Below are positions 19,020 to 60,286 of a stretch of 64,000 nucleotides of DNA, in pieces. The first letter of the stretch is position 1, and every line of letters begins with the position of its first letter. Location of the stretch: contig OZ059899.1 of NCBI GenBank assembly GCA_964057225.1, positions 11,222,001-11,286,000 of the forward strand. Direction: 5' to 3'. The position numbers were made by a program, and so were the translations under genes. This DNA is from Auanema rhodensis. Taxonomy: Eukaryota; Animalia; Nematoda. The notes beneath the pieces are model-generated. The model had not been told where the DNA came from and did not search any database. It saw only the letters and a program-made list of their open reading frames with translations.

Positions 19020-19037
19020 TGGAGGTTCCACCGAGAT
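19020..19037 (+). promoter_or_regulatory. Primer binding site (tRNA-Gln), family A
   Basis: TGGAGGTTCCACCGAGAT, an 18-nt complement of the tRNA-Gln 3' end ATCTCGGTGGAACCTCCA. Confidence 0.9.
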
Positions 19038-19550: not shown

Positions 19551-20783
19551 ATGCACCGCCTACATGGCTTGAAACAGTTACCAACGGAATCGGTACAAAG
19601 CTTTGCAACAAGATGTTCTAACGAAGCCTACTCGGCTATGGACATGAACAACGAAAGTGAGCTTAACATGCTCCGATCCACCTTCACTTGGGGACTAAGA
19701 CCCGAAATAAGCGAACATGTTAGCCGTCTAGACCCACCAAACTTTGAGGAAGCTTACGAAATGGCCTTACGAGAAGAACTCTTTATACAAAATAGACCAC
19801 CATCGTTCGTCAACAATATGGAGAAGTCGTTCAACAACCTCAACATTCGAGACTCAAAGGACAACAATCAATACCAGAGAAACGAATCTAAGGAGTTCAA
19901 AGGAACCAAACCGATGTATAATGGCAATGGCAAACCACACAACCGATATCCGGACAGATACAACAACCAATATCGGCCTCATCAACACCAATACAGGAAC
20001 CATAACTCACGATTCTCTCAAAATAAGGGATCAAGACAAAACTACTTCGACAGATCACGGAACAGAAGCCAGGAAAGACCATACTATCGAAACCGCGACC
20101 AAAACTATAGCGGACACAACAACCGGCGACAATCAAACAATCACGAACAATACCCCTCTCAATACAATCGAAGCCAATACAACAATTATAGAAGTCGCCC
20201 GCGCAGCACCTCCAATGGACCGGAACGGTATAGAGAACGCACACAGAGCCCAGGAGTACGTTTTCAAGTCAACAACGTCACGGAAAACGAAGTACCGAAC
20301 AACAAAAGAAAATCAACACCATTCCTACCCCTCTTTATCACAATTATCGCACTCATTATAAATACATGCAGTGCAGAAACAACGTACCAGTTATGCACAG
20401 GAAACAGAGGAGGAATATATGTTGAGCCGCCATCGCCAACAGCTTGCCGATCCATCGCACCAACTAATAACCATATCCAGAAGACTACAGCAGAATTGTT
20501 CATCCAAAACCTACAACCAAAAGAATGGGAAGCATGGAAATGTGCATTTGAAACTTACCAACTCTGCATTCACGACGTTTTCTTCATCAGAGAAACTAAT
20601 GTCTCACTAGCAAAAGTTTCACCAACAACACTGCAAGAATGTTCGTCAGCTATTAAAGAAAGAATATTCAACGGTACCAACCTTCAAAGAGAAGCACCAG
20701 GACTCTATGGAACTCCTTCCCACATACAACTATTACTAATGGTATATGGAAACAGGAATGCGAACAACGTACCAGATTCATAG
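19551..20783 (+). CDS. gag: Fragment: Gag C-terminal part (capsid, N/R/Q-rich NC-like region), Env signal peptide and Env N-terminus
   Basis: LRSTFTWGLRP..PPNFEEA; hydrophobic FLPLFITIIALIINTCSA then TTYQLC. Confidence 0.8.
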   Translation: MHRLHGLKQLPTESVQSFATRCSNEAYSAMDMNNESELNMLRSTFTWGLRPEISEHVSRLDPPNFEEAYEMALREELFIQNRPPSFVNNMEKSFNNLNIRDSKDNNQYQRNESKEFKGTKPMYNGNGKPHNRYPDRYNNQYRPHQHQYRNHNSRFSQNKGSRQNYFDRSRNRSQERPYYRNRDQNYSGHNNRRQSNNHEQYPSQYNRSQYNNYRSRPRSTSNGPERYRERTQSPGVRFQVNNVTENEVPNNKRKSTPFLPLFITIIALIINTCSAETTYQLCTGNRGGIYVEPPSPTACRSIAPTNNHIQKTTAELFIQNLQPKEWEAWKCAFETYQLCIHDVFFIRETNVSLAKVSPTTLQECSSAIKERIFNGTNLQREAPGLYGTPSHIQLLLMVYGNRNANNVPDS

Positions 20784-20797
20784 CTGAACGAGGACAC

Positions 20798-22636: not shown

Positions 22637-22669
22637 TGGGCTATTCTTCAAATAAATCCTACTATAGGG

Positions 22670-25600
22670 ATGCGTACAATGCTACGACGACAGGATATAT
22701 CTGCAAGATTCATAAATGATAAACTAATTTATGTAATGCCATGCACACCAATTCAAATTACAAAAACATACCGCGATCACAAAGTCAACAGCACGTGTTT
22801 TCTGGAAACCCCAGTCGAAACGGAACATCACGGCCAACTGTTCATCCTACCAGGTACAAGAGACCTCACACCGATGGCACATCCCATACCATGCGGACTC
22901 ACAATCAAGGATCCCTGGAAAGAAAACGATCAATGGACTAATAATAACCAATCAATAAATGTAACATCACCAGCATACATCGACGAGTTAGGATCAATCA
23001 ACCTAGAACATATCAAGTTTAATGGAAGCAACATTTTCAACAACCTAACAGAATCAACGTTTCCTATGGCACTAGCAATATCATATGAATCCAGCTTAGC
23101 AACGCTACAGGCTACTTTACCAGGAAGAATAAAACCTGTAATCAAACAAAGATTAATTCCTAACATGAACCCTGTTACCCTAACAGCAGGAGCAGCCAGC
23201 AGCTTACTACTCAGCTACGAAAATACAAAAGAAGCTATAACTTGGAAAATGTTTGACTTTCTGTCACCAATATGGGAAAAGATTCAAACCTGGACACTAC
23301 GCGTACTTGCTATCATTGGATCAATCATCATAACAATTGGCATAATCACACTCGCCACCTGGATAATAAAAATATACGCATGTAGTTCAAGGATACCCAT
23401 CAACAATGTCAAATGGGAAGCAGAATACTTACAACCACTATCAACTGAGAACACAAGAACAGAAACATCTCATCCTTCTCCGTCCGCTCCATACGTCGAC
23501 AACCATCACAACAGCTGTCAACTCACATTGTATGATCCTTCAGCACAAATTCCTGAACACATTTATGAAGCTTATTTCCCTACAAGAATGAAGAAAGAAA
23601 ACATAAACTACATAGGAGGATCACAATTACCGTTTGTCCCGATTTCAATCCACAATCACATCTTTAAGGCACTATGGGACACGGGAGCATCAGCATCATA
23701 CATGCGAGAATCCACCTTCAAACAACTGCCCGCTGCAACGATGGTACTAAAACAAACAACAGCGATAGTCGCGAATAAATCTAAATTCTCATTTATGGGA
23801 TACACAAGGATCCTCATAACAATAGGAACAACAGAAACAGAACACAAATTTTATGTAGCAGAAGATAACTACTGTCCAGCACCAGTGTTACTTGGAATAG
23901 ACTTCATGGAAGCATTACATCAACAAGGAATTTACACCTCACTTCGACCGCTGGATAAAACAATTGTTATCGGCACAACACATGTTCCACTAGCACGAGA
24001 AACATCTCCGTGGGAACACCAGACCACAAAAGCATATGTGGTTAGCTTAGAAAACAAAACGCTGAGACCAGGAGAAACAAGAACGCTCACGCTAGAAGTA
24101 CACGATCCAGAAAGCTATGAACAGGCGTTTCTAGATTGTAAGAAACCAGGCAACAAACTCTCTTTCACGCCTACTATATTTACGCCAACTGGATACGGAG
24201 TACAAATTTACGCGACGAACATATGCAAACAGCCACTCGAAATTCAAATGAATCAAGAAATAGGGATAGCAGAAGCGATACCAAAGGACAACCAAGAAAA
24301 ATACGAAGGACAATACATACCTCCGGAAGCTCGATGGGAAGAACAACTGCCATATTTCCCAGACAATTTCATCAATGAACTTGACCTTTCAGAAGCCTGC
24401 TTCTCACAAAACGAACAACAGCAACTGAAAGAAATAATTTTACTACATAAACAAGCGTTTCTCAACGAAGATAGAAATATCGGACTCTTCCTAGGACCAA
24501 TTGAACACTCCATTCCAATCATGCCAGGAAAAACACCATCATTCAAAATTACTTATCGTATACCACTCTCCCAACAAGAAGAAGTGGAGAAACAAATAGA
24601 AGAAATGCTACAACAAAGAATCATTGAACCATCAAACTCAATGACAACTAGTCCAGTAATTTTGGTGAAGAAGAAAGACAAAACTTACAGATTTGTAACG
24701 GACTTTCGAGCTTTGAATGCAATCACTCAGAAACAAGTATATGTCATATCAAACATACAGGACATCCTAGATTTGGCCGCTGGAGCAAGGATCTTCAGCC
24801 ACTTTGATTTAGTATCTGGATTTTTCCAAATACCTCTTAAGAAGGAAGATCGTCATCGTCATCTTACAGCTTTCACAACAACAAGTGGAACTTACCAATA
24901 TTGTCGAATGCCGATGGGATTATGTGGATCACCCCATACTTTTCAAAACGCAGTACGATACCTGCAATCAATGGTTAAATGCAAGCTATTCGTATATCTA
25001 GATGATTTACTACTAATTTCTGAATCTACGACAGCACATTTAAAAGATATCGAAGAAGTTTTGGAAACAGTAACTCAAATAGGATTCAAAATAAAACTGA
25101 AGAAATGCGCATTCGCAAGAAAGGAAGTAAAATTTCTAGGATACATAGTTGGACAAGAAGGAATTAAACCCGACCCACATAAAATCAAGGCAATACAAGA
25201 TTATCCCCAACCAAAATCAACAACAGGAGTAAGAGCTTTCATGGGAGTAGTAAACTACTTCAGAAGGTTCATAAAAAACGCTGCAGGAATAGCAACACCA
25301 CTCTACAACCTCACTCGGAAAGACACTCCGTTCAAATGGACAGAAGAAGAAGAAATTGCTTTTAATACTTTGAAGAAAACATTGACTCAAGCACCTGTGT
25401 TACAAGCACCAATCCCGAAACGACCATATGTTATTGAAAGTGATGGAAGTATGATAGCAGTTGGCGCTGTACTACTTCAAGCGAAAGACGATCAAGTACC
25501 ATTACACCCAATAGCTTCTGCTAGTCGGAAACTCAACAAAGCTGAAAGGAATTATCCACCAATAGAAGTAGAAGCATTAGCTCTTACATTCGCCGTTAAA

Positions 25601-26269
25601 CAATTTCGCACCTACATACTAGGAACAGCAACCAAAATTATCACGGATCATAGACCACTTACTAGTTTAATGACTAGAAAAGATTTAATAGGTCGTTTAG
25701 CAAAATTTCAAATTGTTTTACAAGAATACGATATTGAAATTATCTACAGACCAGTAAAATTAAATAGTGTATGTGACGCATTATCACGATATTTTGAAGA
25801 TGAAATCAACGAAGCAAAACCACTAGCAAAGAAGAAAAACGAAAGAAAAACGACGGAAGATACTATTCATAAGATAAACACCTTCACGATAGCAGATATT
25901 CGATCAGTTCAGAATCAATCAAATTGGATAAAAGAAACTATGGATAAAATAAAGAACAATACAGCTGGACGACAACTGACGGACAGATATATTGTGTACA
26001 ACGATGTACTATACTCAAAACCAAAAAGAAGCCTACAAGTACCACGAACAATTTTACCACGAGAAGAGCACATAATTAATCCAATTATGAAGAAATTTCA
26101 TGAAGATCCGACACTCGGAGCTCATCTAGGAATAAACAAAACAATGGACTCAATATCAAGACGATTTACATGGACTGGAATGCAAGAAGACATTACAAAC
26201 TACATCAACAGATGTCTTGCTTGTGCAAAAAGAAAGAACAATCCTCACGAAGCAACGGTGAACCAATGA
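22670..26269 (+). CDS. pol: Fragment: Env C-terminus/TM fused in frame to protease, RT, RNase H and integrase N-terminus
   Basis: TM helix, LWDTGA, YLDD, ESDGS, H-H-C-C. Confidence 0.9.
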   Translation: MRTMLRRQDISARFINDKLIYVMPCTPIQITKTYRDHKVNSTCFLETPVETEHHGQLFILPGTRDLTPMAHPIPCGLTIKDPWKENDQWTNNNQSINVTSPAYIDELGSINLEHIKFNGSNIFNNLTESTFPMALAISYESSLATLQATLPGRIKPVIKQRLIPNMNPVTLTAGAASSLLLSYENTKEAITWKMFDFLSPIWEKIQTWTLRVLAIIGSIIITIGIITLATWIIKIYACSSRIPINNVKWEAEYLQPLSTENTRTETSHPSPSAPYVDNHHNSCQLTLYDPSAQIPEHIYEAYFPTRMKKENINYIGGSQLPFVPISIHNHIFKALWDTGASASYMRESTFKQLPAATMVLKQTTAIVANKSKFSFMGYTRILITIGTTETEHKFYVAEDNYCPAPVLLGIDFMEALHQQGIYTSLRPLDKTIVIGTTHVPLARETSPWEHQTTKAYVVSLENKTLRPGETRTLTLEVHDPESYEQAFLDCKKPGNKLSFTPTIFTPTGYGVQIYATNICKQPLEIQMNQEIGIAEAIPKDNQEKYEGQYIPPEARWEEQLPYFPDNFINELDLSEACFSQNEQQQLKEIILLHKQAFLNEDRNIGLFLGPIEHSIPIMPGKTPSFKITYRIPLSQQEEVEKQIEEMLQQRIIEPSNSMTTSPVILVKKKDKTYRFVTDFRALNAITQKQVYVISNIQDILDLAAGARIFSHFDLVSGFFQIPLKKEDRHRHLTAFTTTSGTYQYCRMPMGLCGSPHTFQNAVRYLQSMVKCKLFVYLDDLLLISESTTAHLKDIEEVLETVTQIGFKIKLKKCAFARKEVKFLGYIVGQEGIKPDPHKIKAIQDYPQPKSTTGVRAFMGVVNYFRRFIKNAAGIATPLYNLTRKDTPFKWTEEEEIAFNTLKKTLTQAPVLQAPIPKRPYVIESDGSMIAVGAVLLQAKDDQVPLHPIASASRKLNKAERNYPPIEVEALALTFAVKQFRTYILGTATKIITDHRPLTSLMTRKDLIGRLAKFQIVLQEYDIEIIYRPVKLNSVCDALSRYFEDEINEAKPLAKKKNERKTTEDTIHKINTFTIADIRSVQNQSNWIKETMDKIKNNTAGRQLTDRYIVYNDVLYSKPKRSLQVPRTILPREEHIINPIMKKFHEDPTLGAHLGINKTMDSISRRFTWTGMQEDITNYINRCLACAKRKNNPHEATVNQ

Positions 26270-27813
26270 AAAATTTTCCAACATCAACAAAACCATGGCA
26301 AAGAGTACACATGGATATACTCGGACCATTACCTAGGACAGAACAAGAAAACAGATATGTTCTTTCAATTCAAGATTCTTTTTCAAAATGGATTATCGCA
26401 ATTCCGCTAATCAGACAAACATCAGGAGAAATTATATCAGCTATCGAAAAATATCTCTTCTATGTTTTTGGACCACCTGTTACTATCATCACAGACAATG
26501 GATCTAATTTTATTTCAAACGATTTCACTACTATGTGCAGTAATTTTGGAACTACACACCACACTACTATGCCGTATTACAAAAACGCTAACGGACAAGT
26601 GGAAAGATTGCATCGGACGATCGAAGAAGCATTAACACCCTACGTTAATGACGAACAAAACGATTGGGATAAAATACTTCCGAAGATTATTTTTACACTC
26701 AACAGATTACCAAACGCCACCACTAAAACATCACCATACGAATGTTTGTTTGGACAAGTAGCATGTCTACCCATTGACAAAAACTTGGAAACACCGGAAG
26801 AACAAAATATCACGGATCAGCTCAAAAACTTAAGAGATATTCAAGAAAAAGTCAAGGAAAAGATTGCCACCAACGAAGAAAGAATGAAGCAGAAATACGA
26901 TCAAGCACATAGGACAAAAGAAAGAATATTAGATATAGGAGATCGAGTATTTGTACAAAGAGCGAACCCAAGCAACAAATTACAAATACGAAGAGATGGA
27001 CCTTACCGGATAGTGACAATTGAAGGAAACAACATCAGCATAACGGACCAAGATGGAAATATTATAAAAGCTCACAAAAATAACATACGTTATTTTCCAC
27101 CAGACGATAATCTTATATCAACAAGAAATAATGAAGAAGAGGAAGAAGAGGACCAAGACATAGCAAACGAAGAAGAAGAAGAAGAAGAAGAAACAAGTTG
27201 GAATAATCTGGATGAATGGGAACAAACCAATAATACGGAAAATAACAACAACTGTTACCCAACAGGCAGTCCAGATACTCTCGCGCAACTGTTACCTATC
27301 ACAGGGAATAACAGAGGAGTAAACGAAGAAGAAATTGAACATAATTCAGAAACACCTGACGACCTTGCTACAGCAAGAAGAATAACAAATTCTAATATAC
27401 AATTAGAAAATGAATCAACAACAATCGACAGAATTCAAGAGGACCTCAGACAGCTGACACCTTTCTCTCAAGAAGAAGGTCCTAATCAAAACGATATAGA
27501 AGATAATAACGCAAAAACATACGAAAAGCTACGAGATCAATTCAAGAATGAAAACAGAAAGGAGCTATTTGAGGACAGAAACAAAAACTCACCAGCAATC
27601 AAAAATTGGAACACTACACTTGCCGCAGCACTAGGAATAGGAAATGAAAACTCACGCCCGTATCATGTTAAACTAAAACCCAAAAGAAAAACACAAGACG
27701 AAGAAATCAGAAGTAATGGAGAATTGGAACTACATGGAAAAGCGGATCAAAGCAAAAAGCAGCAGAATAAATCTCCAACGCAAAACAAAGGAGAACAAGT
27801 ACGAAACTTTTAA
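26170..27813 (+). CDS. Fragment: integrase core, GPY/F motif and long acidic tail
   Basis: VHMDILGP, ITDNGSNF, NGQVER, DGPY. Confidence 0.9.
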   Translation: MDWNARRHYKLHQQMSCLCKKKEQSSRSNGEPMKNFPTSTKPWQRVHMDILGPLPRTEQENRYVLSIQDSFSKWIIAIPLIRQTSGEIISAIEKYLFYVFGPPVTIITDNGSNFISNDFTTMCSNFGTTHHTTMPYYKNANGQVERLHRTIEEALTPYVNDEQNDWDKILPKIIFTLNRLPNATTKTSPYECLFGQVACLPIDKNLETPEEQNITDQLKNLRDIQEKVKEKIATNEERMKQKYDQAHRTKERILDIGDRVFVQRANPSNKLQIRRDGPYRIVTIEGNNISITDQDGNIIKAHKNNIRYFPPDDNLISTRNNEEEEEEDQDIANEEEEEEEETSWNNLDEWEQTNNTENNNNCYPTGSPDTLAQLLPITGNNRGVNEEEIEHNSETPDDLATARRITNSNIQLENESTTIDRIQEDLRQLTPFSQEEGPNQNDIEDNNAKTYEKLRDQFKNENRKELFEDRNKNSPAIKNWNTTLAAALGIGNENSRPYHVKLKPKRKTQDEEIRSNGELELHGKADQSKKQQNKSPTQNKGEQVRNF

Positions 27814-28016
27814 TTAACTAACAAAAATCGTAGAATTGTAAAAATAATTTTTCTTTCTTTCGTATAGTACATTAAACATAAGACATAGATCAAAAACCAC
27901 CGAAATTCTAATTTCTATCCTTTAATTTTAACAAATTGTAACAATCACTGAAAAACAAACTATATAAAGAGAAAATTTTGATAGAGAAAAATTCAATAAC
28001 ACTTTTCTTACTCAAA

Positions 28017-28661
28017 ATGACCTCCTCTCTCGCCAACGTCACACTCTCTACATTCCCCGCAACTCCAACACCACTGGTCCCTCTAGCGACCACTATTGAA
28101 CAAGAATGGATAGAGGTACAAAACCTTCGTGAAGGTCTTCTATCTATCAACTGCATGAAGCCCAACTTAGGACCAATAATAAGCCTACAAACGAGCAAAT
28201 TGGAAAAGAAGACACAGCACATCCTATTTATGATGGAACTATTGGAGGAGAAAACCAAAAACTATAAGGAAAACGATCTGAAGGAGCTTCGCCAGCATCA
28301 AAAGAAATGGACAGAAGGATGTTCTCTCAGCCAGAAAGAGAACAGAATCCGACACATAATGCTGGGACAACCCGCCAGAACGCAGACCACAGCTGACATC
28401 TACAAAGCAATGCCGACGTGGACAACACAGATGACACAACAAGCTGTAAGAAATAGCGGAACCGAAGAAGAAGCATCGTGGATAGAGATAGGGCAAGACC
28501 TATCAGTAGTAATCGAAAAACTACTTACAAAAAGGACTACCAACACGTCCGCATCAAAAAGTAAGGCAAAAGCAGTTAGCCAAACCATCAGAACAATGGA
28601 GCTGCTTGGACTAGCATCAATGACGGAAATGATCCAGGAAATTGACCAACTGGAGAATTAA
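28017..28661 (+). CDS. Extra ORF 3' of pol in family A (214 aa from ATG; unknown function, predicted helical)
   Basis: Uninterrupted ORF with AAAA-ATG context, flanked by AT-rich noncoding DNA. Confidence 0.7.
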   Translation: MTSSLANVTLSTFPATPTPLVPLATTIEQEWIEVQNLREGLLSINCMKPNLGPIISLQTSKLEKKTQHILFMMELLEEKTKNYKENDLKELRQHQKKWTEGCSLSQKENRIRHIMLGQPARTQTTADIYKAMPTWTTQMTQQAVRNSGTEEEASWIEIGQDLSVVIEKLLTKRTTNTSASKSKAKAVSQTIRTMELLGLASMTEMIQEIDQLEN

Positions 28662-28856
28662 AGAAGAGAGGAAAGGTTTAAATCATTTATAAAATTCTAT
28701 CTCTTAAAAAAATTTTTCTCTTTATCAATAGTTTGTTGAAAAAAAAAATTTGCTTTATCTCATGCCATTTTAATTTTTTTAATTTTTTAATTTTTCTCTC
28801 TTAATTATTATTTGCATATAACAGCTGAGGTCAGCTGACTTGTATCCGTTGGAGCA

Positions 28857-29273
28857 TGTTACATGCATATCTCAAAGGAAAGCAGCTGACCATGGCAGCT
28901 GCTATTATTAAACTAATGCAGATAGTTTTTAAGCAATTCTGAGAATATTCTAGATGCACTTTTTATAAGCTTTGTAACAATTTGTGTAAACTGAGTAGGA
29001 GTTGTATGGATATATAAACCTGAGTCCTCAAGACTCAGGCATCTCATTATCTCATTATCTTACTTTCTCTTTATCTTCTTTATATTCTCTTTCTTAACTC
29101 TAGCTTTAATCTTTGTATAATTATATTATAATGCGAACAATAAACCTTTATATATTTCATCTTTTGTTTCTTATTTCACCTTACATTACACACATATATT
29201 TAAAATCATACTCATCGTCTCATAGTCTGTTTGGATATCTCAACTTGGAACCATTGGGAATCCAAATGGAACG
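28857..29273 (+). repeat. 3' LTR, family A
   Basis: Direct repeat of 18603-19019. Confidence 0.95.
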
Positions 29274-48156: not shown

Positions 48157-48223
48157 TACGAAAGTACGAAAAAACAAAGCGCTGATTATAGGAAACGTGA
48201 ATGAATGCAGATATTCTCAATTC

Positions 48224-48589
48224 CGTTCCATTCGGAGACTCTATATATGTAACTGCAGGGTTAGAGCCAGACCGACTAGAGGAATGAGGAATGGCACCGC
48301 CTTCCCTCATGCCCCTATTCGGGAGTTCGCCCCTTTGCAAGCCCATGGACGGTTTGCATCTAACTTAGTTAATCTTATATATTAGTCTTTGTCTTGTAAA
48401 TGTAGTTTACTTTATCCTTGTGTTATTGTATTGTAATGATATTGTATTGTGTATAATAAATCTATATATTTCCTTATCTTATGTAATCCTTATGCTCTGT
48501 TTCCATACCGCTACACTTATGGAATACTATACGCGTAGTTGAGCAGACTACAATGGTCTGTTCAATATACGTAGGAGCATAATGGAACG
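48224..48589 (+). repeat. 5' LTR, family B copy 2
   Basis: 9-bp terminal inverted repeat CGTTCCATT/AATGGAACG. Confidence 0.96.
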
Positions 48590-48610
48590 TGGAGGTTCCG
48601 CCTCGAACTC
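48590..48610 (+). promoter_or_regulatory. Primer binding site (tRNA-Gln)
   Basis: TGGAGGTTCCGCC (A>G versus copy 1) immediately after the LTR. Confidence 0.83.
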
Positions 48611-49571
48611 ATTTTTGTCGCAAAAACTCGCATAAAAAGTCCATATTTTGATATCTAAATTAAAACTTCCTCCACGGTTAGCAACATAATGAGGGCGCCA
48701 ACTTGTATAAGGTGCAGGTACAAGGGATCTCTCTTTTAGAGAGCTAGGACTATATAATTTTGAAATTTCACCCGCTGTCCCCTATCATAAAACCGTCTGA
48801 GTGTCCACCCTTATAATACCGTATCCTGCACCGCTTCTTTTGCATTTTTTTTTTTGAGGACGTTTGGATCGAAATAGGGGACAATTTCACCAAACGAAAT
48901 TTTGATTACATTATTATTTGGCAACGAGGAGTTAGAATGAAATTATGAAAGCGCACAAAGTTTAATATTTTATTGTGGTCAGGACTAGAAATTTGAAAGT
49001 TAAATTCAGGCGTAAAAGAGCATGCTAACTAAATATTTTTGCGGGAGCCGTTATTCGGTTTTTATTTTTTTTTTTTGATTGTGAGAATAGACCACACTAG
49101 TCCGAAAAATCCTGGCACAAATTTTATTGCCTGTCAGGTCATTTTGGCGAAAGCACATGGGCTACGGATGTTTTCTTCTCCGTAGAATGTGTCACCTTCC
49201 TCAGCTCATTTTTGTTGCTAACATCATAAGATATTCCCACACACCTACCGTAGTATTCATATTGTAATATTCTATAAATTAGTACAATGGTTTAAAGAAA
49301 AAATTGCGTTTTATAAACGAGCTTTGGTCTCAGTCCATTAGTAAAATGAGCAATCTTTTTAAATATTCTCGGAATCTCATTAGCATGCCAAAATCATTCC
49401 GAAAAAGAATCGCCCACGGCTTTTAATAATCAACGTGCACATGAGCCATTTTCCCAAGGCGCACGCACTCCTTCTTTATTAATAAGCTCGACCAAAGTTT
49501 GTGTTATGAAAAAAAAAAGAGAGAGAGAACAAATGAGTGAAATTAAGTATTTATTATATATGAAACAATTG

Positions 49572-50105
49572 TTAAAAGCCCCATTTAAAATGCAACTGTC
49601 TCACAAATTCTATAGGCTGTGAGATGGGCTCATCGCTAGGCTCTAAATACTGCGAATACACTGAATCCGCAGAGGTCCTTAGCAATAAGCCCATAGGAGA
49701 CTGTTCATAAAATAAATAAATTTTAAACAAAATTTTAGACATATAATCATAAAAATCATGAGACTTATGCTCATACCAATTCCAAGGGGATGCGACTAGA
49801 TTTGGGTTTTCATACCAATGCGCGCACAAGTCGGTGAGGCACCATCGCCGGATAGCTGCAACCTCATCCGCTATTTCCTGCATTAGGGAGAAGTTTACTA
49901 ATCCCCTTCCCAGATAATGCATCTTTAAATCCTCAATAAACTAAAAATTCTTATTAACATAACATGTTTCTTTGTTTTAACCAACCATCTTAATTATGTC
50001 TGGGTGCGGCCTATAAGCTAACACTTCGTCTTGATCATACAAGACGAGGTCAGCGTACAGCTTCCTCAAGACAAAAGTCATTCCCGATAGACCTTCATAA
50101 GCCAT
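49572..50105 (-). CDS. Spliced antisense accessory gene (exon 1 50105-49986, intron 49985-49941, exon 2 49940-49572; 162 aa)
   Basis: Same exon-intron structure as 2553-3086; 5 amino-acid differences; frame intact. Confidence 0.75.
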
Positions 50106-50516
50106 TCTTTGATTTATTTTTTTTTCAGCTCTACAAATATAAAGATTCTTATGCATAAAAAGGGGACATAAAACGACTGAAAATCTCTCTCATACTTTCA
50201 AGAATTCAATTAGAGTAAAGTATTAAGATTGAGGCTAGAAAGAGCGAAGACCAACAAAATTTATAATTGATGAACATCTGTGAAAAAGAATAAAGAAAAG
50301 AGAATACGGTAGATAGGCGGAGCCAGATCTCAGGCCAAGATTTTAAAACTCTTTCTCATCTAATAACGATTCTCGGCGAAAGACGCCACGTCTCAATCTT
50401 CAAACTTTTCTTACTTTTCCCTATAACCGACCTGAATTTCTTGTCACTCATTCAACGTCAACATCCCCCATATAACGAAACACTCGCGGTTTTTCCAAAC
50501 CAAGAGTGATTCCAAA

Positions 50517-53500
50517 GTGGCACGAAGATACTCTTCGGCCGTCCCTGCTCTATACCCTTCTGAGTCCAGTGACGACATCGCAGTCGCCAGTCGAACCAGA
50601 AGCCGCACTCGACTCCTCAGTGTTCAGATTGAAGAGCCTGAACAAGAGGTAAAACCCAAAGTCGAGAAAACCTTCATTCCTCGAGAAGGCACGTATTCAC
50701 CTCCGGACAACACCGAGGAGGACCCTGATTTCTATATTCAGGACTACAATATTCAAACTTCAGCTTCAACTCCAAAGGTACACTCTTTTAAAAGTAATAA
50801 AAAGATTCAAAAAATTCAAAAACCAAAACAAATAACCTCTAATACTTCACCAGCCACTCCCCACCTAAACTTATCAACTTTATCAGTTAATACTGATAAC
50901 GATCTTGCATCTTCTTTTGAACTAACTCTAACACCGCAGGCATTTTCCACTCCGATAGAAAACTCACAACTTAATAAAACCTCATCTCTCACTATTCGCA
51001 AATCACCCTTATCAGTTATCACTGATAAGCTTGATTCGAAAAAGCTTGATTCTAAAAAAATTAATAAAAGAAAAACTAATACACCGCGTAGGCGCTCAAC
51101 CTCTAATAATCCCGTAGAACCAAATCAGGAAATTACCGAAGTTTTGCCCTTATCACTAACTACTGATAAGTTCAAAAGTAAGAAATCTTTAACAGCTCGC
51201 TTAATAAAAGTTTTGAATTTGTCTCCAGGGGAGGTAACAACAGAACAAGTTGATAACTCTCTTCACGTATCCTCCAACCCAACCCTTAATAAGTCAGATA
51301 GCGCTATACCCAGCTCAAGCGTATCAATACATTCGACGCCTCAGGCAACGAGTCGAATTATCAAACTCCCAGGGAAGCGGTTCTCCTCAGCCGCCCCTAC
51401 CATTAGTTATCCAACATCTGGTAACTCGAAAAAGGGAGGTAAGAATTTAACGGCGAGAAGCTCAGGCAGTAAAGGGATTACGTCATCTCGCACATACCCT
51501 GAGGATATACCAACCATGACGGAGACACCACGTCTTCCGGGAGCTGGTAAATCTACCATTGCGCACGCATTAAGCTCACCTTATTGCCCCATATACGACG
51601 GAAGTCGTAACTTTAGAGATTTCGTGGCAAAGTTTAATACCTTTTCTAACGCCTTAGGCTTAGTGATGCCCGAAAGACTAACTATTTTACCATTACTATT
51701 GAAAAATGATAGAGCAGAGGAAGCTTATTTAGAGCTACCTGACAAGGTCAGAACAGCTGGACCTTGGGTTACCCTAATAGAAGAGTTAACATCCAAGCTG
51801 TGTCCCGAATACAATCAAGACCCTGCCCTTATCACACTTCAAAACAGCACTCAAGGCGATTTATCAATTGATGGTTTTGCACAAACGTTAAGAAACCTCA
51901 GCTTAAATGCTTTCTCTAATAGTGATACTCATAAAGATCACATTCTGAGGTCCACATTTTTGAGAGGCTTGAAAAATACGATACGCCCAGGGGTAATTCG
52001 AGCAAAACCCAAAACTTTTGCTGAGGCTGTTGATAGTGCTCGCTGGGAGGAATCAATTACAAACCAAGTAGCAGACCCTCAGGCGCTATTGGTTAACGCA
52101 ATTGAAAGAACTTTCCCCCCGCGCAGAAACAATGGTGGGAGAGGTATGGCAAGAGGTTATCAATCTTTTAATAATAAAAATTATCAAAATTATAATAATT
52201 ATAACAATTATCATCCAAACTTTCAAAACAATCAAAATTATCATAAATTTTCAAAAAATCAAAAAGGCTGGAATTTCCAAAACCCATTTGCTAGGAACCG
52301 CAATTTTGGTGACCGCGGTCGAAATTATCAGAATCAAAATCAAAATGGGTATCAAAGAAGCCATAATGCATCACAAAATCAAGAAATGAGCAATAATAGA
52401 CAGAGAAATAACAGTACCTTTAGGGGAAATAACAACAATAGAGGCAGAGGTAGAGGCTCAAGAGTCAATAATTTGACTCTGATATCTCCTTTGACTTTAG
52501 CCGTAGCTTTATCAGTAATCTTATCACTGGTTACAACAGCTGAAGCATACCAGCTATGTACTAAAGCTACTGGAGGAGCGCTTCTCCGTCCCCCATCTCT
52601 CCGAAAATGCTTATTACCACCAATAAAGCATATCTTACGAACAAAAGTTCATCTTTATACAAGGAATCAAACGGCACATGAATGGGATGCATGGAGATGC
52701 TCCAAAGAAATTCATAAAATGTGTATCAGAGACCTTTTGTTCCTTAGAGATACCAATACAACGATAGCGAGAATTGAAAAGATACCAGCTGCAGAATGCA
52801 GACTGGCAGTGAGAGATAGAAGATGGAATTGGAGTGAATTAAAGAAGATTGACAGCATAACATATGCAACTGACGAGCCTTCCTTCTCGCCAGGCCGATC
52901 TTTTAATAATGAACTATGTAAAGAGAAAGCTAGATTGGTTATCGAAAGAGGGGCTATGACACGGATGCCAGATGAAACTATAATCTCCAATTTAATACTA
53001 AATACTGAAGGATGCTTAGCGCATCATGGAGAATGTGCATCAGATACTTCAATCATCATATGGGAGAAACAGCCTTATGAATATCGATGCAACTATATCG
53101 ACATGAGTGAATATGATGCGATAATTGGAGACGGCATTATTCTGTTACCAACCACTCAATCAGCCCTTGTAATCGATCAAAAAGAGATACCGAAGCAAAT
53201 ATCTTCTTGTTTTAAACAGCCAATCTTCCACACCACGACTGGCAATTACATTCTTTTACCACAGTACCCAAATGACACCAATATCCCTGTTTTAATAGAG
53301 AGAGAATATAAGAAACTTCCGGCGAAAAGAGATAAAAGAGCAATTGCGGAATGCACGGTTGAATTAAACAAGGAGTGGATACAAAAACAGGAAGATTTTG
53401 AAACTTTAATATTAAATATTTGTCCTTATCCTTTCTTACGACCGGTGATGAGTAATCCTGGTATTTATCAGATAATACCGCTTATAAAGGCCAGACGAGC

Positions 53501-56500
53501 TGTCAACCCTTCATATTCAATTATTGATTGGGTTTCAGCACATCCTGAGAAGTTTTATTTCTTCTTAAGAAGTCCCGTATCTGATAAATCCATACAACGT
53601 TTCCTTCAAACATACGAAATACACGACCCTGAGGAAGCAATACTTTATTTTCTTGCGCAAAAGGAATTGGCAGCAACCACTCGCGGCGCTATACGGTATT
53701 TAACCTCACAACAATTATTAGAACAGATAGGTGACAGATTAACAGCACACGAATTTGACGAAAAACTACTAGAAAAGGATGGATCCTACTGTGAAAGAGC
53801 CGAAAGCATAGCGATGGAGCTAGCTTATACACCGGTAATATTTGAAAACAATCTGTCGGTACCATCGAGGCAAGAGGTTTTAAAATCCTTTGTGAACATG
53901 CCGCCTATCCGACCAACTTTAACAACTGACAATGCTGATGAGCGTATAGTACTTAGGAATACTCTTTACTTATACCATAACTTGATGACATTGCGAGTAA
54001 TAAGGCCAAATAAAACAGCAGCAGCCGTAGATGATGAAAAGTTCCGACAATTAACAATCAATGTGCCAGATACCAACAAACTATATCGAGATAAAGATTC
54101 TAACTACGGTATATCGATAGGCCCCCACCCTCGCATTCAAACTCCAAGCGCGGATACACGCCAGCTACTTATAAAAACATTTTTACCACTGTTAGAGGAT
54201 ATTGAAACACCGCCTTATCTGACTAGAAGACTGTCATTAACGACAACAACGGACAAACCCGCTTCACTAGTTCAGGAGACAACTATAAGCTATACGACTC
54301 GGATTCCGACGACAACCATAGTTGACACGACAACAGCCGTGATAACTACGACTCTCTCGCCAACAACATTAGCAACAGTCACTGACACGGCGTCACGAAC
54401 CTTAAGGAAACAAAGAACATCATCTCCACCCGTAGAAACCAGAGAAATTCAGGCTCAGGCAACGTATACAGCGTCAAAAGTGAACAACGAAATACAATTC
54501 AACCTCAACGTATCTCGCAGAATAGCTCAAGATCATCTACAATATACAACAACACTCATACAAGAAGAGCTACAGAAACGTTTTATGGAATCTTATGAAT
54601 CCATATGTGAGATTCAAAATAGATACCTCGAGCTATGGCGTTCTATTTTACACATAGAACCCACAATAGCAATGAGGACTATTTTAGGAAGAGAGGATAT
54701 TGCAGCCCGTTTCGTAGGCAGCGATATAGTTCATGTTCATATATGCTTACCTCTTCAACCTAAAGCTGTTTATCATAATCATAAGATCAATGATACATGC
54801 TATTTGGAAACACCAGTAATAACAGAAGATGAGAGATTATATTTTGCTGCTCCAGGATCAAGAGACTTATTAACACATGGAAAAGAGATAGATTGCGAAC
54901 ATGTACCAACAGATGTGTACTATCAAAATGGAGAATGGATAAATATAAATGGATCGGTTGAAGTAAAACCAATATCACTCTTTGATAAAGCGCAATACCA
55001 CCAATTAACACCTTTAAAGTTCACATGCGCTAACTTATACACCAATTTATCATTGAGAGTTTACTCAATGTCAACAGCTATTGCATATGGAGCAAGTTTA
55101 GCATCCATACAACAGAACCATGTTTTACATACTATTCACAACGATCCAAAGATTACGTCAGCCTTTAATCTTTTGAAAAAGGGCAGTGACTATATCTCTA
55201 AAGCAGCTGAGTTCACAACTTCCGCCTGGACTAGCGTAAAACAATTTCTAATAGGTTCAATTGAGAGAACACTCATCTTTATAGGATCAATAGTCACGAT
55301 TGCCGCAGTATTAATAATTCTTTTCGTTGTTGCTAAATTTTGGTTCTTCAGAGCCACTCCACTAACCGTAATGCATGTCCATGAAATAGATAATGAGCCC
55401 CCAGGCTATGAAGAAACATTGGAACTTGTAAGCCGCCCAGACCAACAGATGCCAGATAACATCATGAAGCAATACTATCCTGCGTTAGTAACATTTATTC
55501 CAATCGCAATACCATTTGTTGCTTCTATTGCATCAGCGGAAACAAAGTTACCATTAATATATATATCAGTTGAAGATAAACTGATTTTAGCTTTATGGGA
55601 TTCAGGCTCATCAGTGTCATATGTTAGGCTCTCCACCCTCAAATATCTGAACATGGCCGAAAATGTCAAGAAGAGACATTTAGTAGCGATGGCAGCCAAC
55701 AAGTCCACTTTCACATTTTATGGAAAGATAAATCTTGTAATTGAAATTGCCGGCTACGAGATCGAACACACATTTTTGGTCTCAAACGATCATGACTGTC
55801 CTGCTCCCGCTTTAATTGGACTAGATTTCATGAAAGCGCTTGACAGCGAAAACATCGACGTCAGCCTTAAACCATCCAAGAAGAGGTTGGAGATTGGAAA
55901 CAATGCCATCCCATTAATAGGAAACGAATCTATTAAGCATACGGAGATAACTGTGAATATCATTAATTTAAGAACAAAAACATTAAAGCCTGATGAAGAG
56001 GCACCTATCCCAATAAAGACAGATAAACCACTAGAATCTAACGAAGTGGTTGTCTTAGGGGATAGTGGAAGCGCATTAAAATCATTATATCCAACTGCGT
56101 TTCGTGATACCAGTGGAGTATATGTTATGTTCCGTAACGATACCGATGAAACAATAGCTATGGAAGCTAATTCAGTCATCGGGCAGGCAATAATTGGAGA
56201 AATTCCGGCTTGTGAACCCTTTAAGCATAAGCCAATTCTACCATATGTTCCGCCAGAAGCCGATTGGGAGAGTAAACTACCATATTTTCCAAGACACTTC
56301 ATAAAAGATCTTGATCTAGAGAATGCTGATCTCACGAAAGAAGAAAAACATGAGCTTACAAAAATAATTGAAAGCCATCGTGAGGCATTTCTTAACGAGG
56401 ACAGGAAAATAGGATTATTTAAAGGTCCTATAGAGCATACCATACCATTGAGAACAGATATGGATATGCCAAAGCCGAGAATAACACGTATTCCCTTAGG

Positions 56501-59222
56501 AAAACAGGAAGAAATTGAAAAGCAAGTCAAAGAAATGCTTGAGCAAGGCATAATAGAGCCTTCTACATCTCTATTTAATAGCCCTGTAGTACTAGTTAAG
56601 AAGAAAGATGACACGTATAGGTTTGTGACAGATTTTCGAGCTTTAAATAATGTCACACGCAAGCAAACTTATGTCATTCCAAGCATTTCTGACATAGTTG
56701 ATTTGGCAGCAGGCGCCCAATTTTTCTCAAACTTCGATTTAGTGTCAGGATTTTTTCAAATATCCTTGAGAAAATCAGATCGACCACTAACAGCATTTAC
56801 GACCACATCCGGCACATACCAGTACAAACGGATGCCGATGGGCCTTTGTGGAGCCCCTCATACCTTTCAAACAGCAGTAAGGTATTTGCAAAGTAAATGT
56901 TCTTGTAAACTATTTGTTTACTTGGACGATCTATTAGTTATATCTGATACAAGAGAACAACATCTCAAAGATATCGATGATTTACTGCAAGCAGTAGAAG
57001 AATTGGGAATGAAGATAAAGCTTAAGAAATGCGCTTTTGCTCAACCAGAAGTGAAATTTCTAGGACTTATTGTAGGACGTCAAGGTATAAAACCTGACCC
57101 TCAAAAAGTCGCCGCCATACAAGATTATCCGGCACCAAAGAATGCAACAGGTGTACGAGCATTCTTGGGAATGGTTGGATTCTTTCGCAAATTCATGAAA
57201 GATTTTGCACGTATCGCAAGCCCTTTATACGATCTGACAAAGGCAGATACTGAATTCAAATGGGAAAACAAACAAAAAGAAGCTTTAGACCTCCTTAAAA
57301 GAAGTTTAATACAGGCACCCGTTTTAAGCCCACCTAAATCGGACCGCTTGTTTATAGTTGAAAGCGACGGTAGTAACATCGCCATAGGTGCTGTATTATT
57401 ACAACCGGAAGATCCAAAACAACCTCTGAAAAATCTACACCCTATCGCATTTGCAAGCAGAAAACTAGTTAAAGCCGAACGTAACTACGCACCAATCGAG
57501 ATAGAAGCATTAGGCCTTGTATATGCATTAAATCAATTCCGTACATACATTCTTGGAACTCATACTATATGTATTACGGACCATCGACCCCTTACCAGCT
57601 TAATGACACGCAGAGACTTATTTGGTCGTCTTGCGAAGTTCCAGCTGGTCATCCAAGAATATGATATTGAAATAAAATATCGCGCAGGCCAATTAAATAA
57701 AGTATGCGATGCTCTATCTCGATATATAGGTAAAGAAGCTAACGATGCTAAGCCGGAAACAAAGAAGAAGAAAATGGAAGAAATTCACATTAACGCCATA
57801 AATACACCAACAATAAAGGAAATTCAACTGAACACCCCTTGGATTAAACGAACGATAGCGGAGATTGAATATAGAGCACAAAAGAACATGACAGCTAATG
57901 ACAGATATTGTGTCATAAACGACTTGCTATATACAAAACCGACAGACAAAAAGCCACAACCCGCTATCGTAATACCACAAGAACACCCCATAATTGAGGA
58001 AATAATCAAAGTTTTTCATGAGGATCCTACAATTGCAGCACATCAAGGAATTATTAAAACAAAAGAAGCAATTCTAAGAAGATTCTATTGGACAAATATG
58101 CAGAACGACATTACTATATTCATCAAGAACTGCATTAAATGTGCTCAAAGAAAAAAAGATCCACATTCCATGACGGTACAACCAATAGGTCATTTTGAGA
58201 TACCAAGCAAGCCATTTGAACGAGTCCACATGGACGTAATGGGACCATTTCCCCCTTCAAAAAGAAACTGTACCTACGTCATTACCATGCAAGACGCATT
58301 TACAAAATGGTCAACAACAATTGCTGTACCACAAATAACAACGGAAATCACAATTGACCGATTTCTAAGACATTTCGTTTACATTTTTGGACCACCCCAT
58401 CGCTTGATCACCGATAGAGGTTCGAACTTTGTATCTAAAAAGTTCGAAGAAATGTGTACTAAACTTGGAATCAAACATGAACCAACACTACCACACCAAA
58501 AGAACTCAAATGGACAAGTGGAAAGACTTCACAGAACCCTCGAAGAAGGATTAACCCACTACTTAAAAGAGGACCTTAGTGACTGGGATACTATATTACC
58601 AAAAATCACTTTTGCTATTAACAATATTCAGCACGCGACTACAGGGATTGCGCCATACATTGCATTATTCGGTAAAGAATGCAGAATGTCAATGGACGCT
58701 GAATTACCAGAAACGATCACCAAAATTCAAGAAATTTCTGAAGAATTACTCCAAAGAAGACCAGATATGGACAAGAGAGACGAAATAATAAAGAACCGCA
58801 TAGCTAAAAATCAAGAAAATGCGAAAAAGAAGAAAGATAGAACGCAAAGAGCACACCATAGAGACATTCAACCGGGCGACATGGTGATGACGACTATAAA
58901 ATCACACCAAATCGGCCAAAAGCTTCGGAAAAGCTATGATGGACCATACGAAGTCATCAACGTAGAAGGATCAAAAGTTCAAATCAGAAATTCATCAGGA
59001 AAACTACAAGATATCCACAAAGATAACTTGAAAATCTTCTCTCCTGCTTCACAAAACATCTCTTACAACACTCGCGCAAGGTTTCGAGAAAGTCAAGCAG
59101 AAGAAGATAGCGACATCGAAATAATAGAAGTGATCAACAGGAACAACAAGGATAGCATAGATACAGAGCCAGAAGATGAAAATGAAGACGAAATATGGCT
59201 TCCGAGGAATGAAGAAGAATAA
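50517..59222 (+). CDS. gag-env-pol: Gag-Env-Pol polyprotein (capsid; signal peptide; gB-like class III Env; TM; aspartic protease; RT; RNase H; integrase)
   Basis: PIYDG/FLRGL capsid motifs; signal peptide ending at 52547; KRDKR at 53325; gB-like motif at 54606-54747; TM ~55270-55350; DSG at 55599; YLDD at 56919; ESDGS; HHCC; DDE; GPY. The first ATG is at 51516, so the true start is uncertain. Confidence 0.95.
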   Translation: MARRYSSAVPALYPSESSDDIAVASRTRSRTRLLSVQIEEPEQEVKPKVEKTFIPREGTYSPPDNTEEDPDFYIQDYNIQTSASTPKVHSFKSNKKIQKIQKPKQITSNTSPATPHLNLSTLSVNTDNDLASSFELTLTPQAFSTPIENSQLNKTSSLTIRKSPLSVITDKLDSKKLDSKKINKRKTNTPRRRSTSNNPVEPNQEITEVLPLSLTTDKFKSKKSLTARLIKVLNLSPGEVTTEQVDNSLHVSSNPTLNKSDSAIPSSSVSIHSTPQATSRIIKLPGKRFSSAAPTISYPTSGNSKKGGKNLTARSSGSKGITSSRTYPEDIPTMTETPRLPGAGKSTIAHALSSPYCPIYDGSRNFRDFVAKFNTFSNALGLVMPERLTILPLLLKNDRAEEAYLELPDKVRTAGPWVTLIEELTSKLCPEYNQDPALITLQNSTQGDLSIDGFAQTLRNLSLNAFSNSDTHKDHILRSTFLRGLKNTIRPGVIRAKPKTFAEAVDSARWEESITNQVADPQALLVNAIERTFPPRRNNGGRGMARGYQSFNNKNYQNYNNYNNYHPNFQNNQNYHKFSKNQKGWNFQNPFARNRNFGDRGRNYQNQNQNGYQRSHNASQNQEMSNNRQRNNSTFRGNNNNRGRGRGSRVNNLTLISPLTLAVALSVILSLVTTAEAYQLCTKATGGALLRPPSLRKCLLPPIKHILRTKVHLYTRNQTAHEWDAWRCSKEIHKMCIRDLLFLRDTNTTIARIEKIPAAECRLAVRDRRWNWSELKKIDSITYATDEPSFSPGRSFNNELCKEKARLVIERGAMTRMPDETIISNLILNTEGCLAHHGECASDTSIIIWEKQPYEYRCNYIDMSEYDAIIGDGIILLPTTQSALVIDQKEIPKQISSCFKQPIFHTTTGNYILLPQYPNDTNIPVLIEREYKKLPAKRDKRAIAECTVELNKEWIQKQEDFETLILNICPYPFLRPVMSNPGIYQIIPLIKARRAVNPSYSIIDWVSAHPEKFYFFLRSPVSDKSIQRFLQTYEIHDPEEAILYFLAQKELAATTRGAIRYLTSQQLLEQIGDRLTAHEFDEKLLEKDGSYCERAESIAMELAYTPVIFENNLSVPSRQEVLKSFVNMPPIRPTLTTDNADERIVLRNTLYLYHNLMTLRVIRPNKTAAAVDDEKFRQLTINVPDTNKLYRDKDSNYGISIGPHPRIQTPSADTRQLLIKTFLPLLEDIETPPYLTRRLSLTTTTDKPASLVQETTISYTTRIPTTTIVDTTTAVITTTLSPTTLATVTDTASRTLRKQRTSSPPVETREIQAQATYTASKVNNEIQFNLNVSRRIAQDHLQYTTTLIQEELQKRFMESYESICEIQNRYLELWRSILHIEPTIAMRTILGREDIAARFVGSDIVHVHICLPLQPKAVYHNHKINDTCYLETPVITEDERLYFAAPGSRDLLTHGKEIDCEHVPTDVYYQNGEWININGSVEVKPISLFDKAQYHQLTPLKFTCANLYTNLSLRVYSMSTAIAYGASLASIQQNHVLHTIHNDPKITSAFNLLKKGSDYISKAAEFTTSAWTSVKQFLIGSIERTLIFIGSIVTIAAVLIILFVVAKFWFFRATPLTVMHVHEIDNEPPGYEETLELVSRPDQQMPDNIMKQYYPALVTFIPIAIPFVASIASAETKLPLIYISVEDKLILALWDSGSSVSYVRLSTLKYLNMAENVKKRHLVAMAANKSTFTFYGKINLVIEIAGYEIEHTFLVSNDHDCPAPALIGLDFMKALDSENIDVSLKPSKKRLEIGNNAIPLIGNESIKHTEITVNIINLRTKTLKPDEEAPIPIKTDKPLESNEVVVLGDSGSALKSLYPTAFRDTSGVYVMFRNDTDETIAMEANSVIGQAIIGEIPACEPFKHKPILPYVPPEADWESKLPYFPRHFIKDLDLENADLTKEEKHELTKIIESHREAFLNEDRKIGLFKGPIEHTIPLRTDMDMPKPRITRIPLGKQEEIEKQVKEMLEQGIIEPSTSLFNSPVVLVKKKDDTYRFVTDFRALNNVTRKQTYVIPSISDIVDLAAGAQFFSNFDLVSGFFQISLRKSDRPLTAFTTTSGTYQYKRMPMGLCGAPHTFQTAVRYLQSKCSCKLFVYLDDLLVISDTREQHLKDIDDLLQAVEELGMKIKLKKCAFAQPEVKFLGLIVGRQGIKPDPQKVAAIQDYPAPKNATGVRAFLGMVGFFRKFMKDFARIASPLYDLTKADTEFKWENKQKEALDLLKRSLIQAPVLSPPKSDRLFIVESDGSNIAIGAVLLQPEDPKQPLKNLHPIAFASRKLVKAERNYAPIEIEALGLVYALNQFRTYILGTHTICITDHRPLTSLMTRRDLFGRLAKFQLVIQEYDIEIKYRAGQLNKVCDALSRYIGKEANDAKPETKKKKMEEIHINAINTPTIKEIQLNTPWIKRTIAEIEYRAQKNMTANDRYCVINDLLYTKPTDKKPQPAIVIPQEHPIIEEIIKVFHEDPTIAAHQGIIKTKEAILRRFYWTNMQNDITIFIKNCIKCAQRKKDPHSMTVQPIGHFEIPSKPFERVHMDVMGPFPPSKRNCTYVITMQDAFTKWSTTIAVPQITTEITIDRFLRHFVYIFGPPHRLITDRGSNFVSKKFEEMCTKLGIKHEPTLPHQKNSNGQVERLHRTLEEGLTHYLKEDLSDWDTILPKITFAINNIQHATTGIAPYIALFGKECRMSMDAELPETITKIQEISEELLQRRPDMDKRDEIIKNRIAKNQENAKKKKDRTQRAHHRDIQPGDMVMTTIKSHQIGQKLRKSYDGPYEVINVEGSKVQIRNSSGKLQDIHKDNLKIFSPASQNISYNTRARFRESQAEEDSDIEIIEVINRNNKDSIDTEPEDENEDEIWLPRNEEE

Positions 59223-59263
59223 CAACAAGATAATGCTACGTTATTTAAATTATTGTAACAAAA

Positions 59264-59739
59264 TAACGATGAATTAGAAAAAAAAAATTAATGCTAAATA
59301 ACATTCAAAATAAAAATAGCATTTAATAGAGATTGAGAAAGGAAAAATAAGGCAAATTCTAAACGAGGAGATGTTATGACTAATGGTTCCAAGTTACCGT
59401 AATCCTATGCGGACTAGAGGACATTTTGACAACCATCCGAGCTCCATGTGCCTCTCCAAATAAGATGAGATAAACACTGGTAGGCGTATAAATCACAATT
59501 TCATCTTAAGTGGTAGTCTCCATTAGTAATCAAGGATTCACTCTGGGAGACATATGGAGATACATTATTAAATCATAATCTCGGTTCAATTTAGAAATGA
59601 GTACTTCTTGAGACCATTAGTCAAAATAATAACATATTCCCATTCATTACTAGCCCCTTATTCTACAATCTCTATTAGGAAATGCTTGAATATTAAGATA
59701 ATTAATTTATGAAATTAATAATATTCTAATTCATCGTTA
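59264..59739 (+). other. Long rod-like RNA secondary structure in the 3' UTR
   Basis: At least nine nested complementary segments, including 16-, 12- and 11-bp perfect pairs. Confidence 0.8.
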
Positions 59740-59909
59740 CTTTATATTATATCGAACCCTTCTTATAAATTATTGTAATTTTGTTTTTATACTAATTAAA
59801 ACTCTATCATACTATAGTTATTGTGAAGCTAAAATAATTGAACTCTAAAACTCAGTTACATATAAGCCCAAATTTTTGTTTTAAATATCGCGAGGTCGCG
59901 ACAATCTTT

Positions 59910-59920
59910 GAAAAAGGGCA
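59910..59920 (+). promoter_or_regulatory. Polypurine tract
   Basis: GAAAAAGGGCA directly before the 3' LTR. Confidence 0.75.
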
Positions 59921-60286
59921 CGTTCCATTCGGAGACTCTATATATGTAACTGCAGGGTTAGAGCCAGACCGACTAGAGGAATGAGGAATGGCACCGCCTT
60001 CCCTCATGCCCCTATTCGGGAGTTCGCCCCTTTGCAAGCCCATGGACGGTTTGCATCTAACTTAGTTAATCTTATATATTAGTCTTTGTCTTGTAAATGT
60101 AGTTTACTTTATCCTTGTGTTATTGTATTGTAATGATATTGTATTGTGTATAATAAATCTATATATTTCCTTATCTTATGTAATCCTTATGCTCTGTTTC
60201 CATACCGCTACACTTATGGAATACTATACGCGTAGTTGAGCAGACTACAATGGTCTGTTCAATATACGTAGGAGCATAATGGAACG
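59921..60286 (+). repeat. 3' LTR, family B copy 2
   Basis: Direct repeat of 48224-48589. Confidence 0.96.

Follow-up and report, generated by a model that had tools for sequence, protein, structure and literature searches.

A probable Ty3/gypsy-type element of Auanema rhodensis with the envelope between Gag and Pol in one reading frame, and its predicted processing and leader features

Retroelements with GAG-ENV-POL order from Nematoda, Bryozoa and Platyhelminthes, in which ENV is exclusively of the gB type, are described in the main text of Chary and Hayashi (eLife 2026, PMC13524379), where the group is named 'ancient errantiviruses' with HSV/gB-type ENV. The nematode case is credited there to Sacco et al. 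2022, with a metavirus that carries a captured RNA-virus glycoprotein and in which env and pol are flipped. Supplementary file 1 of the same study has 36 rows for nematode elements, several of them from Caenorhabditis with a tRNA-Gln 12-mer; none of these rows belongs to Auanema or Heterorhabditis. In the literature searched, a description of the GAG-ENV-POL order was found only in PMC13524379. A further nematode element, Cer1 of C. elegans, produces an accessory protein from a spliced mRNA sharing its frame with the polyprotein (from the part of PMC10309623 used here).

The window analysed in this study, i.e. the whole stretch of DNA from A. rhodensis, is 64,000 nt in length and contains an LTR element with the following features (all on the plus strand). 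Residue numbers given below count on the 2901-aa protein that begins at position 50517 (P0001).

48224..60286, plus strand: whole LTR element, 12,063 nt
48220..48223, plus strand: left target-site duplication ATTC, found again at 60287-60290
48224..48589, plus strand: 5' LTR, 366 nt, with the ends CG...CG instead of TG...CA and short inverted termini
48590..48601, plus strand: primer-binding site of the tRNA-Gln type, directly 3' of the 5' LTR
51516..59222, plus strand: AUG-started Gag-Env-Pro-Pol frame, 2568 aa
51570..52076, plus strand: Ty3-type capsid (weak Pfam match and matches to homologues)
52104..52466, plus strand: N/Q/R/G-rich, nucleocapsid-like region without a zinc knuckle
55554..55856, plus strand: aspartic protease with DSG at aa 1695 (Pfam)
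56595..57662, plus strand: reverse transcriptase (YLDD at aa 2135) together with RNase H (Pfam)
57990..58496, plus strand: zinc-binding and core domains of the integrase (Pfam)
59910..59918, plus strand: polypurine tract, 5' of the 3' LTR
59921..60286, plus strand: 3' LTR, with the same sequence as the 5' LTR

We consider it probable that the locus is an intact Ty3/gypsy-type element with a single Gag-Env-Pro-Pol frame, whose product is predicted to cross the ER membrane twice and which belongs to the published GAG-ENV-POL group with gB-type Env. The two LTRs are identical at 366 of 366 positions, which makes a recent insertion likely, in line with the recent activity suggested in the preliminary description; the element is intact and likely young. 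The target duplication comprises 4 nt on both flanks. The primer site matches the 12-mer listed as tRNA-Gln for nematode elements at 11 of 12 positions; the sites of a second copy and of a diverged relative in the window (family A) match the same 12-mer at all 12.

A stop-free frame extends over 2928 codons (50436..59222, plus strand), and the 2901 codons between 50517 and 59222 contain no stop, as had been stated. The proposed start at 50517 holds only insofar as the frame is open from before this position: the codon found there is GUG, and the first in-frame AUG is located at 51516, so that the AUG-started protein has a length of 2568 aa. The Pfam domains follow each other in the order Ty3_capsid (438-515), fusion protein (1338-1481), aspartyl protease (1684-1773), reverse transcriptase (RVT_1, 2027-2185), RNase H (2249-2382) and integrase (2492-2660). 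Taken together with hydropathy, this confirms the order capsid, signal peptide, Env, transmembrane anchor, protease, reverse transcriptase, RNase H, integrase. The Ty3_capsid match is weak and below threshold (E 0.024), and its location agrees with that of the capsid in homologues. The fusion protein is matched by both Monjiviricetes_fusion (1340-1481, E 7.8e-15) and Glycoprotein_B (1338-1424, E 8.9e-9). Catalytic residues of the protease and of the reverse transcriptase are present.

The order of the pol domains, the direct LTRs, the primer-binding site, the polypurine tract and the target-site duplication are those of Ty3/gypsy elements (Metaviridae). Pfam yielded Ty3-type RT_RNaseH and H2C2 matches, and Pao domains were absent. 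The absence of Pao domains and the position of env before pol separate the element from BEL/Pao (Belpaoviridae); likewise, it has neither the gag-pol-env order nor the F-type fusogen of insect errantiviruses. With the nematode gB-type errantiviruses, as presented in the main text and supplementary file 1 of PMC13524379, it has in common the Ty3/gypsy order of pol, an env located between gag and pol, a gB-type ectodomain between signal peptide and transmembrane anchor, the tRNA-Gln primer and a similar length. Since that order is published, the main layout is already known, and the novelty considered in the preliminary description does not stand. Cer1, as far as the part of PMC10309623 used here describes it, is likewise a nematode Ty3/gypsy element without a stop between gag and pol, but it lacks a gB-type env.

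The membrane-associated features, predicted from Kyte-Doolittle (KD) hydropathy, are:

52476..52547, plus strand: predicted internal signal peptide
55275..55346, plus strand: predicted transmembrane anchor
55347..55553, plus strand: cytosolic tail or linker, carrying the motifs PPxY and YPxL as well as a weakly hydrophobic patch

A signal-peptide-like peak was found at residues 654-672 (KD 2.24), within a segment (654-677) that ends in A-x-A before Y678, and a strong transmembrane peak at 1587-1605 (KD 3.09). A single segment with KD>=1.8 lies between Env and protease in all 23 long homologues, and none of the 24 long proteins, the element included, has such a segment inside the ectodomain. 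The signal-type h-region exceeded the threshold in 19 of 24 proteins and fell below it in five. These values support the pair of internal signal peptide and transmembrane anchor that had been postulated. The topology drawn from this pair had, however, missed a third hydrophobic patch with two prolines before the protease (1656-1674, KD 2.07). Were this patch to span the membrane, Pol would come to lie in the lumen. The corresponding site is below 1.8 in all 16 homologues tested (highest value 1.76) and often carries tandem cleavage-type motifs, which is why the patch is likely to be a region of protease sites and not a transmembrane segment. With two crossings, Gag and Pol would both be cytosolic. 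In the mechanism we propose, the internal signal peptide would open translocation and signal peptidase would free Env, which furin would cut at RDKR. The anchor would stop translocation, leaving the capsid and the enzymes in the cytosol and the gB-type fusion protein in the lumen.

The motif [VI]N-x-[ILVM] was read off the element, the homologue P0002 and family A and was then counted in 22 other homologues, excluding P0002 and the element, against shuffles within each zone. It was found to be enriched at the capsid end (8 versus 0.9 in shuffles), before the signal peptide (11 versus 1.8), after the transmembrane anchor (12 versus 1.9) and before the protease (9 versus 1.5), each with 0 of 2000 shuffles reaching the count; the homologues are related, so that these shuffle counts and those for the tail motifs below overstate significance. 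In the linker between RNase H and integrase the enrichment was weak (32 of 2000 shuffles), and there was none in the lumen (19 versus 23) or in the reverse transcriptase core (3 versus 2.5). Occurrence at cytosolic junctions only would fit a viral protease that acts on the cytosolic side, and the motif likely represents the cleavage site of the element's protease. The element itself has the exact motif at residues 526, 650 and 2425. It has no exact motif after the anchor or before the protease, where only variants surround the tail, and four exact motifs lie outside the junctions tested. Its protease would cut between capsid and nucleocapsid, between nucleocapsid and signal peptide, and between RNase H and integrase, and the variants around the tail may be further cleavage sites. 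In the homologues P0015 and P0029, protease-like stretches are duplicated after the anchor (two to three stretches matched by Pfam).

P[ST]AP was found in five of 31 other Env tails, compared to 0.13 in shuffles, and also occurs in family A. PPxY stands in its place in the tails of the element and of its nearest relative; beyond these two, PPxY is not enriched (one of 31 tails). Judged by their sequence, these Env-tail motifs are late-domain-like. Particles in their immature form would assemble on the membrane with Gag and Pol not yet released from it, and PPxY or P[ST]AP in the Env tail would aid their budding.

The envelope is composed of the following parts:

52548..53339, plus strand: N-terminal, beta-rich part, ending in the furin-type site RDKR
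53340..54242, plus strand: helical insert, predicted to be folded (pLDDT 75, pTM 0.73)
54243..54446, plus strand: Thr/Ser-rich, mucin-like linker with low pLDDT
54474..55274, plus strand: C-terminal part of the gB/Monjiviricetes fusion family, with a crown and a long central helix

The ectodomain has a length of 909 aa and contains 18 Cys. The earlier characterisation as a Cys-rich ectodomain of about 900 aa is correct in length, and it fits only the two ends, as the middle is made up of a helical insert of about 300 aa and a Thr-rich stretch. An AlphaFold model of residues 678-1586, based on an alignment of 36 sequences, has a mean pLDDT of 70 and a pTM of 0.40 and consists of a beta-rich N-terminal part, a central helix of 72 residues and a beta crown. 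Foldseek matched this model to herpesvirus gB (best E 1.2e-11; 112 of the 500 matches counted at E<=0.001) and to nyami-, chu- and rhabdo-like glycoproteins (best E 6.7e-15). As a whole, the model scores low against gB (TM-scores 0.18-0.30), an effect of the insertion of about 385 residues downstream of the furin-type RDKR. By its modelled fold, Env is a class III (gB-type) fusion protein.

The insert is shared by Auanema proteins and family A. Modelled from eight sequences, it forms a helical domain (values as listed above). It has no Pfam domain and no usable Atlas match; the best VIA-align score was Z 3.3 over 46 residues, and Foldseek gave no viral match at E<=0.001, which is not equivalent to a new fold. 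A second furin site that would close the insert was not found with the pattern R/K-x-K/R-R.

It could be argued that Env is carried by particles that are not infectious, in which case the element would move within the cell and Env would serve as an assembly tether or be functionally decayed. The insert of about 385 aa, which splits the ectodomain, speaks for this reading. The pattern of substitutions points in the opposite direction: 14 of 23 env substitutions, taken from four other runs (40 of 148 rows listed), are synonymous, compared to an expected share of 0.27 (p 6e-4), and this excess indicates that env is under constraint. Moreover, 15 Env columns are invariant or near-invariant across 36 sequences, ten of them Cys, and the furin-type site, the class III fold and the late-domain-like motifs are retained. 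A non-infectious element is therefore rather unlikely in our view.

A second alternative concerns the RNA. Spliced RNAs could yield Gag-Pol without Env, and Env separately, so that the stoichiometry would deviate from 1:1:1. For Cer1, a spliced RNA is made despite one long frame (PMC10309623, in the part used here), and the weak patch before the protease would be harmless if Pol came from another RNA. Canonical sites that could splice env out were not found: the stretch from the end of Env to the protease lacks a TTTCAG acceptor, the nucleocapsid region lacks a GTRAG donor, and the single TTTTAG lies inside the protease. Contigs of eight runs contained no joint that skips env, with thin env cover in the runs guessed to be RNA; the RNA status of four runs is a guess, and gaps in their cover carry no meaning. 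One contig bridges 49986-59920. The single transmembrane segment in all of the long homologues also fits use by read-through. We thus regard env-skipping splicing as distinctly improbable and retain the reading of one chain that crosses the membrane twice.

Two related elements are present in the same window:

1..4434, minus strand: second copy of this family with 99.2% identity, truncated at the window edge
18603..29273, plus strand: family A, a diverged relative with the same domain order in five frames

Family A has LTRs of 417 nt that are 99.3% identical and an extra frame of 239 codons after pol. Compared piece by piece, it is 27-47% identical to the element at 48224-60286. It had been put forward as evidence that the arrangement is a lineage trait: it does attest the domain order, but not the single open reading frame, since its frame is broken into five. 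The 3' end of the LTR and the primer site are common to family A and to the family of the element (B), and the bodies of the LTRs differ; the LTR termini are CG...CG in B (48224/48589) and TG...CG in A (18603/19019). Further families with the same LTR end and primer site occur in contigs of other runs.

A search with env gave 299 matches, of which the best 150 and two more were taken as 152 homologues. Pol is located downstream in the same protein in 51 of these and upstream in two; ten have capsid and env only, and 89 env only. These 51 proteins, together with the order in family A, support env between gag and pol as a lineage trait. Long proteins picked from the env-only class all proved to be BEL/Pao (7 of 7) with env at the end. 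They share Monjiviricetes_fusion with the element and differ from it in their Pao-type pol domains (Peptidase_A17, DUF1759) and in having env after pol. Named carriers belong to Auanema, Caenorhabditis, Aphelenchus, Acrobeloides and Diploscapter; in P0155 of C. brenneri (2593 aa), env is upstream of the reverse transcriptase. P0043, a homologue with gag-env-pol in a single open reading frame, has an RRM domain between gag and env. The nearest named relatives are from Auanema in env (48%) and from Heterorhabditis and Auanema in the RT-RNase H part (66-68%).

A FastTree phylogeny was calculated from 77 of 144 RT cores, comprising all env-upstream proteins, all named ones and every third of the rest. 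The element clusters with Auanema proteins and family A (0.93), within a clade of 12 members, the named ones of which are all rhabditids (0.999). A wider clade of 25 members includes P0155 and comprises 20 env-upstream proteins (0.908). The RT phylogeny, which had been suggested as a check, thus places the element among rhabditid env-upstream elements. Misassembly is plausible in a tandem array with inversions, but an origin of the order by faulty assembly, or by a single nested insertion of an env fragment into a gag-pol element, has next to no probability: family A and 51 homologous proteins show this order too, and contigs of independent runs follow the sequence, with no indel inside the frame among the rows listed.

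An array of tandem tRNA-Ile genes surrounds the element. The sequence between the elements of the window (4437-64000) is made up of tandem units of about 667 nt with a tRNA gene in each. Rfam gave 50 tRNA matches in the array, and all 12 of those checked are tRNA-Ile AAT. A local inversion was observed in the array near 11734-13600, and a remnant of a MULE-type DNA transposon (5877-8430, minus strand) is inserted there and seems to sit inside a tRNA copy (MULE E 3.6e-5; the RYYR-CCHC match is weak). Yeast Ty3 is known for tRNA-targeted integration. Targeting of this kind was considered for the window and rejected: the three insertions lie 67 nt from the 5' end of a tRNA-Ile gene and 42 and 84 nt from 3' ends, and with these differing places there is no fixed insertion position.

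The leader upstream of gag contains the following features:

50271..51515, plus strand: AUG-free leader, 1,245 nt, with no ATG in any plus-strand frame
49572..49940, minus strand: open antisense stretch (122 codons) that terminates with TAA, candidate exon of an accessory gene
49941..49985, minus strand: segment of 45 nt, GT...TTTTTAG, with an in-frame stop, candidate intron or DNA length variant
49986..50189, minus strand: open antisense stretch (68 codons) that, with the 45 nt skipped, shares its phase with the 122-codon stretch

The ATG-free run is the longest in the element (the next has 524 nt). It contains no ATG compared to 13.6 expected, a value reached in 7 of 10,000 codon shuffles. 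Its last 360 codons (50436-51515), which are rich in S, T, K and P, are stop-free in the Gag frame, as in 0 of 2000 shuffles, and this holds in both copies. The GUG at 50517 has a good context (A at -3, G at +4). Started there, the protein would gain an N-terminal extension of 333 aa, which is hydrophilic and lacks a membrane anchor. No homologue of this extension was found among the fetched proteins, and the test for selection was not significant (4 of 8 changes synonymous, p 0.16). Leaky scanning with a longer form started at a non-AUG codon is the likely use of this leader; the rival explanation is entry into the Gag frame by an unseen splice. In MLV, glyco-Gag is a longer form made by leaky scanning, which starts at a non-AUG codon that lies upstream of the Gag AUG in the same frame. 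The comparison is an analogy only, as the present extension of 333 aa is hydrophilic and without membrane anchor. The literature searched gave no nematode element in which Gag starts at a non-AUG codon.

On the antisense strand, AATAAA follows 17 nt beyond the TAA of the 122-codon stretch, and a homopolymer in the 68-codon stretch varies in length at 50116. The 45-nt segment is skipped in contigs of four of eight runs (X12, X13 and X14, guessed to be RNA and from one study, and X10, guessed to be DNA) and kept in contigs of X1 and X3. Between the two copies, 6 of 11 changed codons in the 122-codon stretch are synonymous (p 0.037). The stretch has no Pfam domain and no homologue among proteins of 67-214 aa, and Atlas matches were found only at 0.76. 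A spliced antisense accessory gene in the leader is plausible from these features; it would differ from the accessory frame of Cer1, which lies in the polyprotein frame (PMC10309623, in the part used here). Contigs of a related family (X1, X4, X10) match the leader in short blocks only (48852-49211 and 50305-50507), and these are possibly conserved cis-acting sites, e.g. for packaging or as promoter.

A word search of the main text of PMC13524379 found no occurrence of 'polyprotein', 'splic', 'antisense' or 'frameshift'. In those words, this main text does not treat processing, the antisense frame, the AUG-free leader or the Env insert. New features are perhaps limited to the AUG-free leader, the possible antisense gene and the unmatched insert domain of Env. 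The elements of Sacco et al. 2022 reportedly go by the name NERVs and combine a single continuous gag-env-pro-pol frame with additional small ORFs. That work may already describe part of the side features of the element.

Taken together, the layout is known, and the main text of PMC13524379 does not work out its mode of expression. The value of the locus lies in an inferred processing map and three equally inferred side features. Only tentatively do we propose that it is a complex endogenous retrovirus with a two-start leader (GUG and AUG), a spliced antisense accessory gene and a gained helical Env domain of about 260 aa. If this is true, the GUG start would add a basic, disordered arm of 333 aa to the polyprotein that the AUG start omits, and the helical domain after the furin site would perhaps serve in receptor binding or shielding. 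The leader features, if real, would make this a complex element with accessory products. The protease motif and the swappable late domains would, if true, provide a map of processing and budding for the whole GAG-ENV-POL group. The intact copy gives predictions on how a single chain can supply a retroelement with its capsid, envelope and enzymes, and such a one-chain element bears on the origin of viruses from LTR elements.
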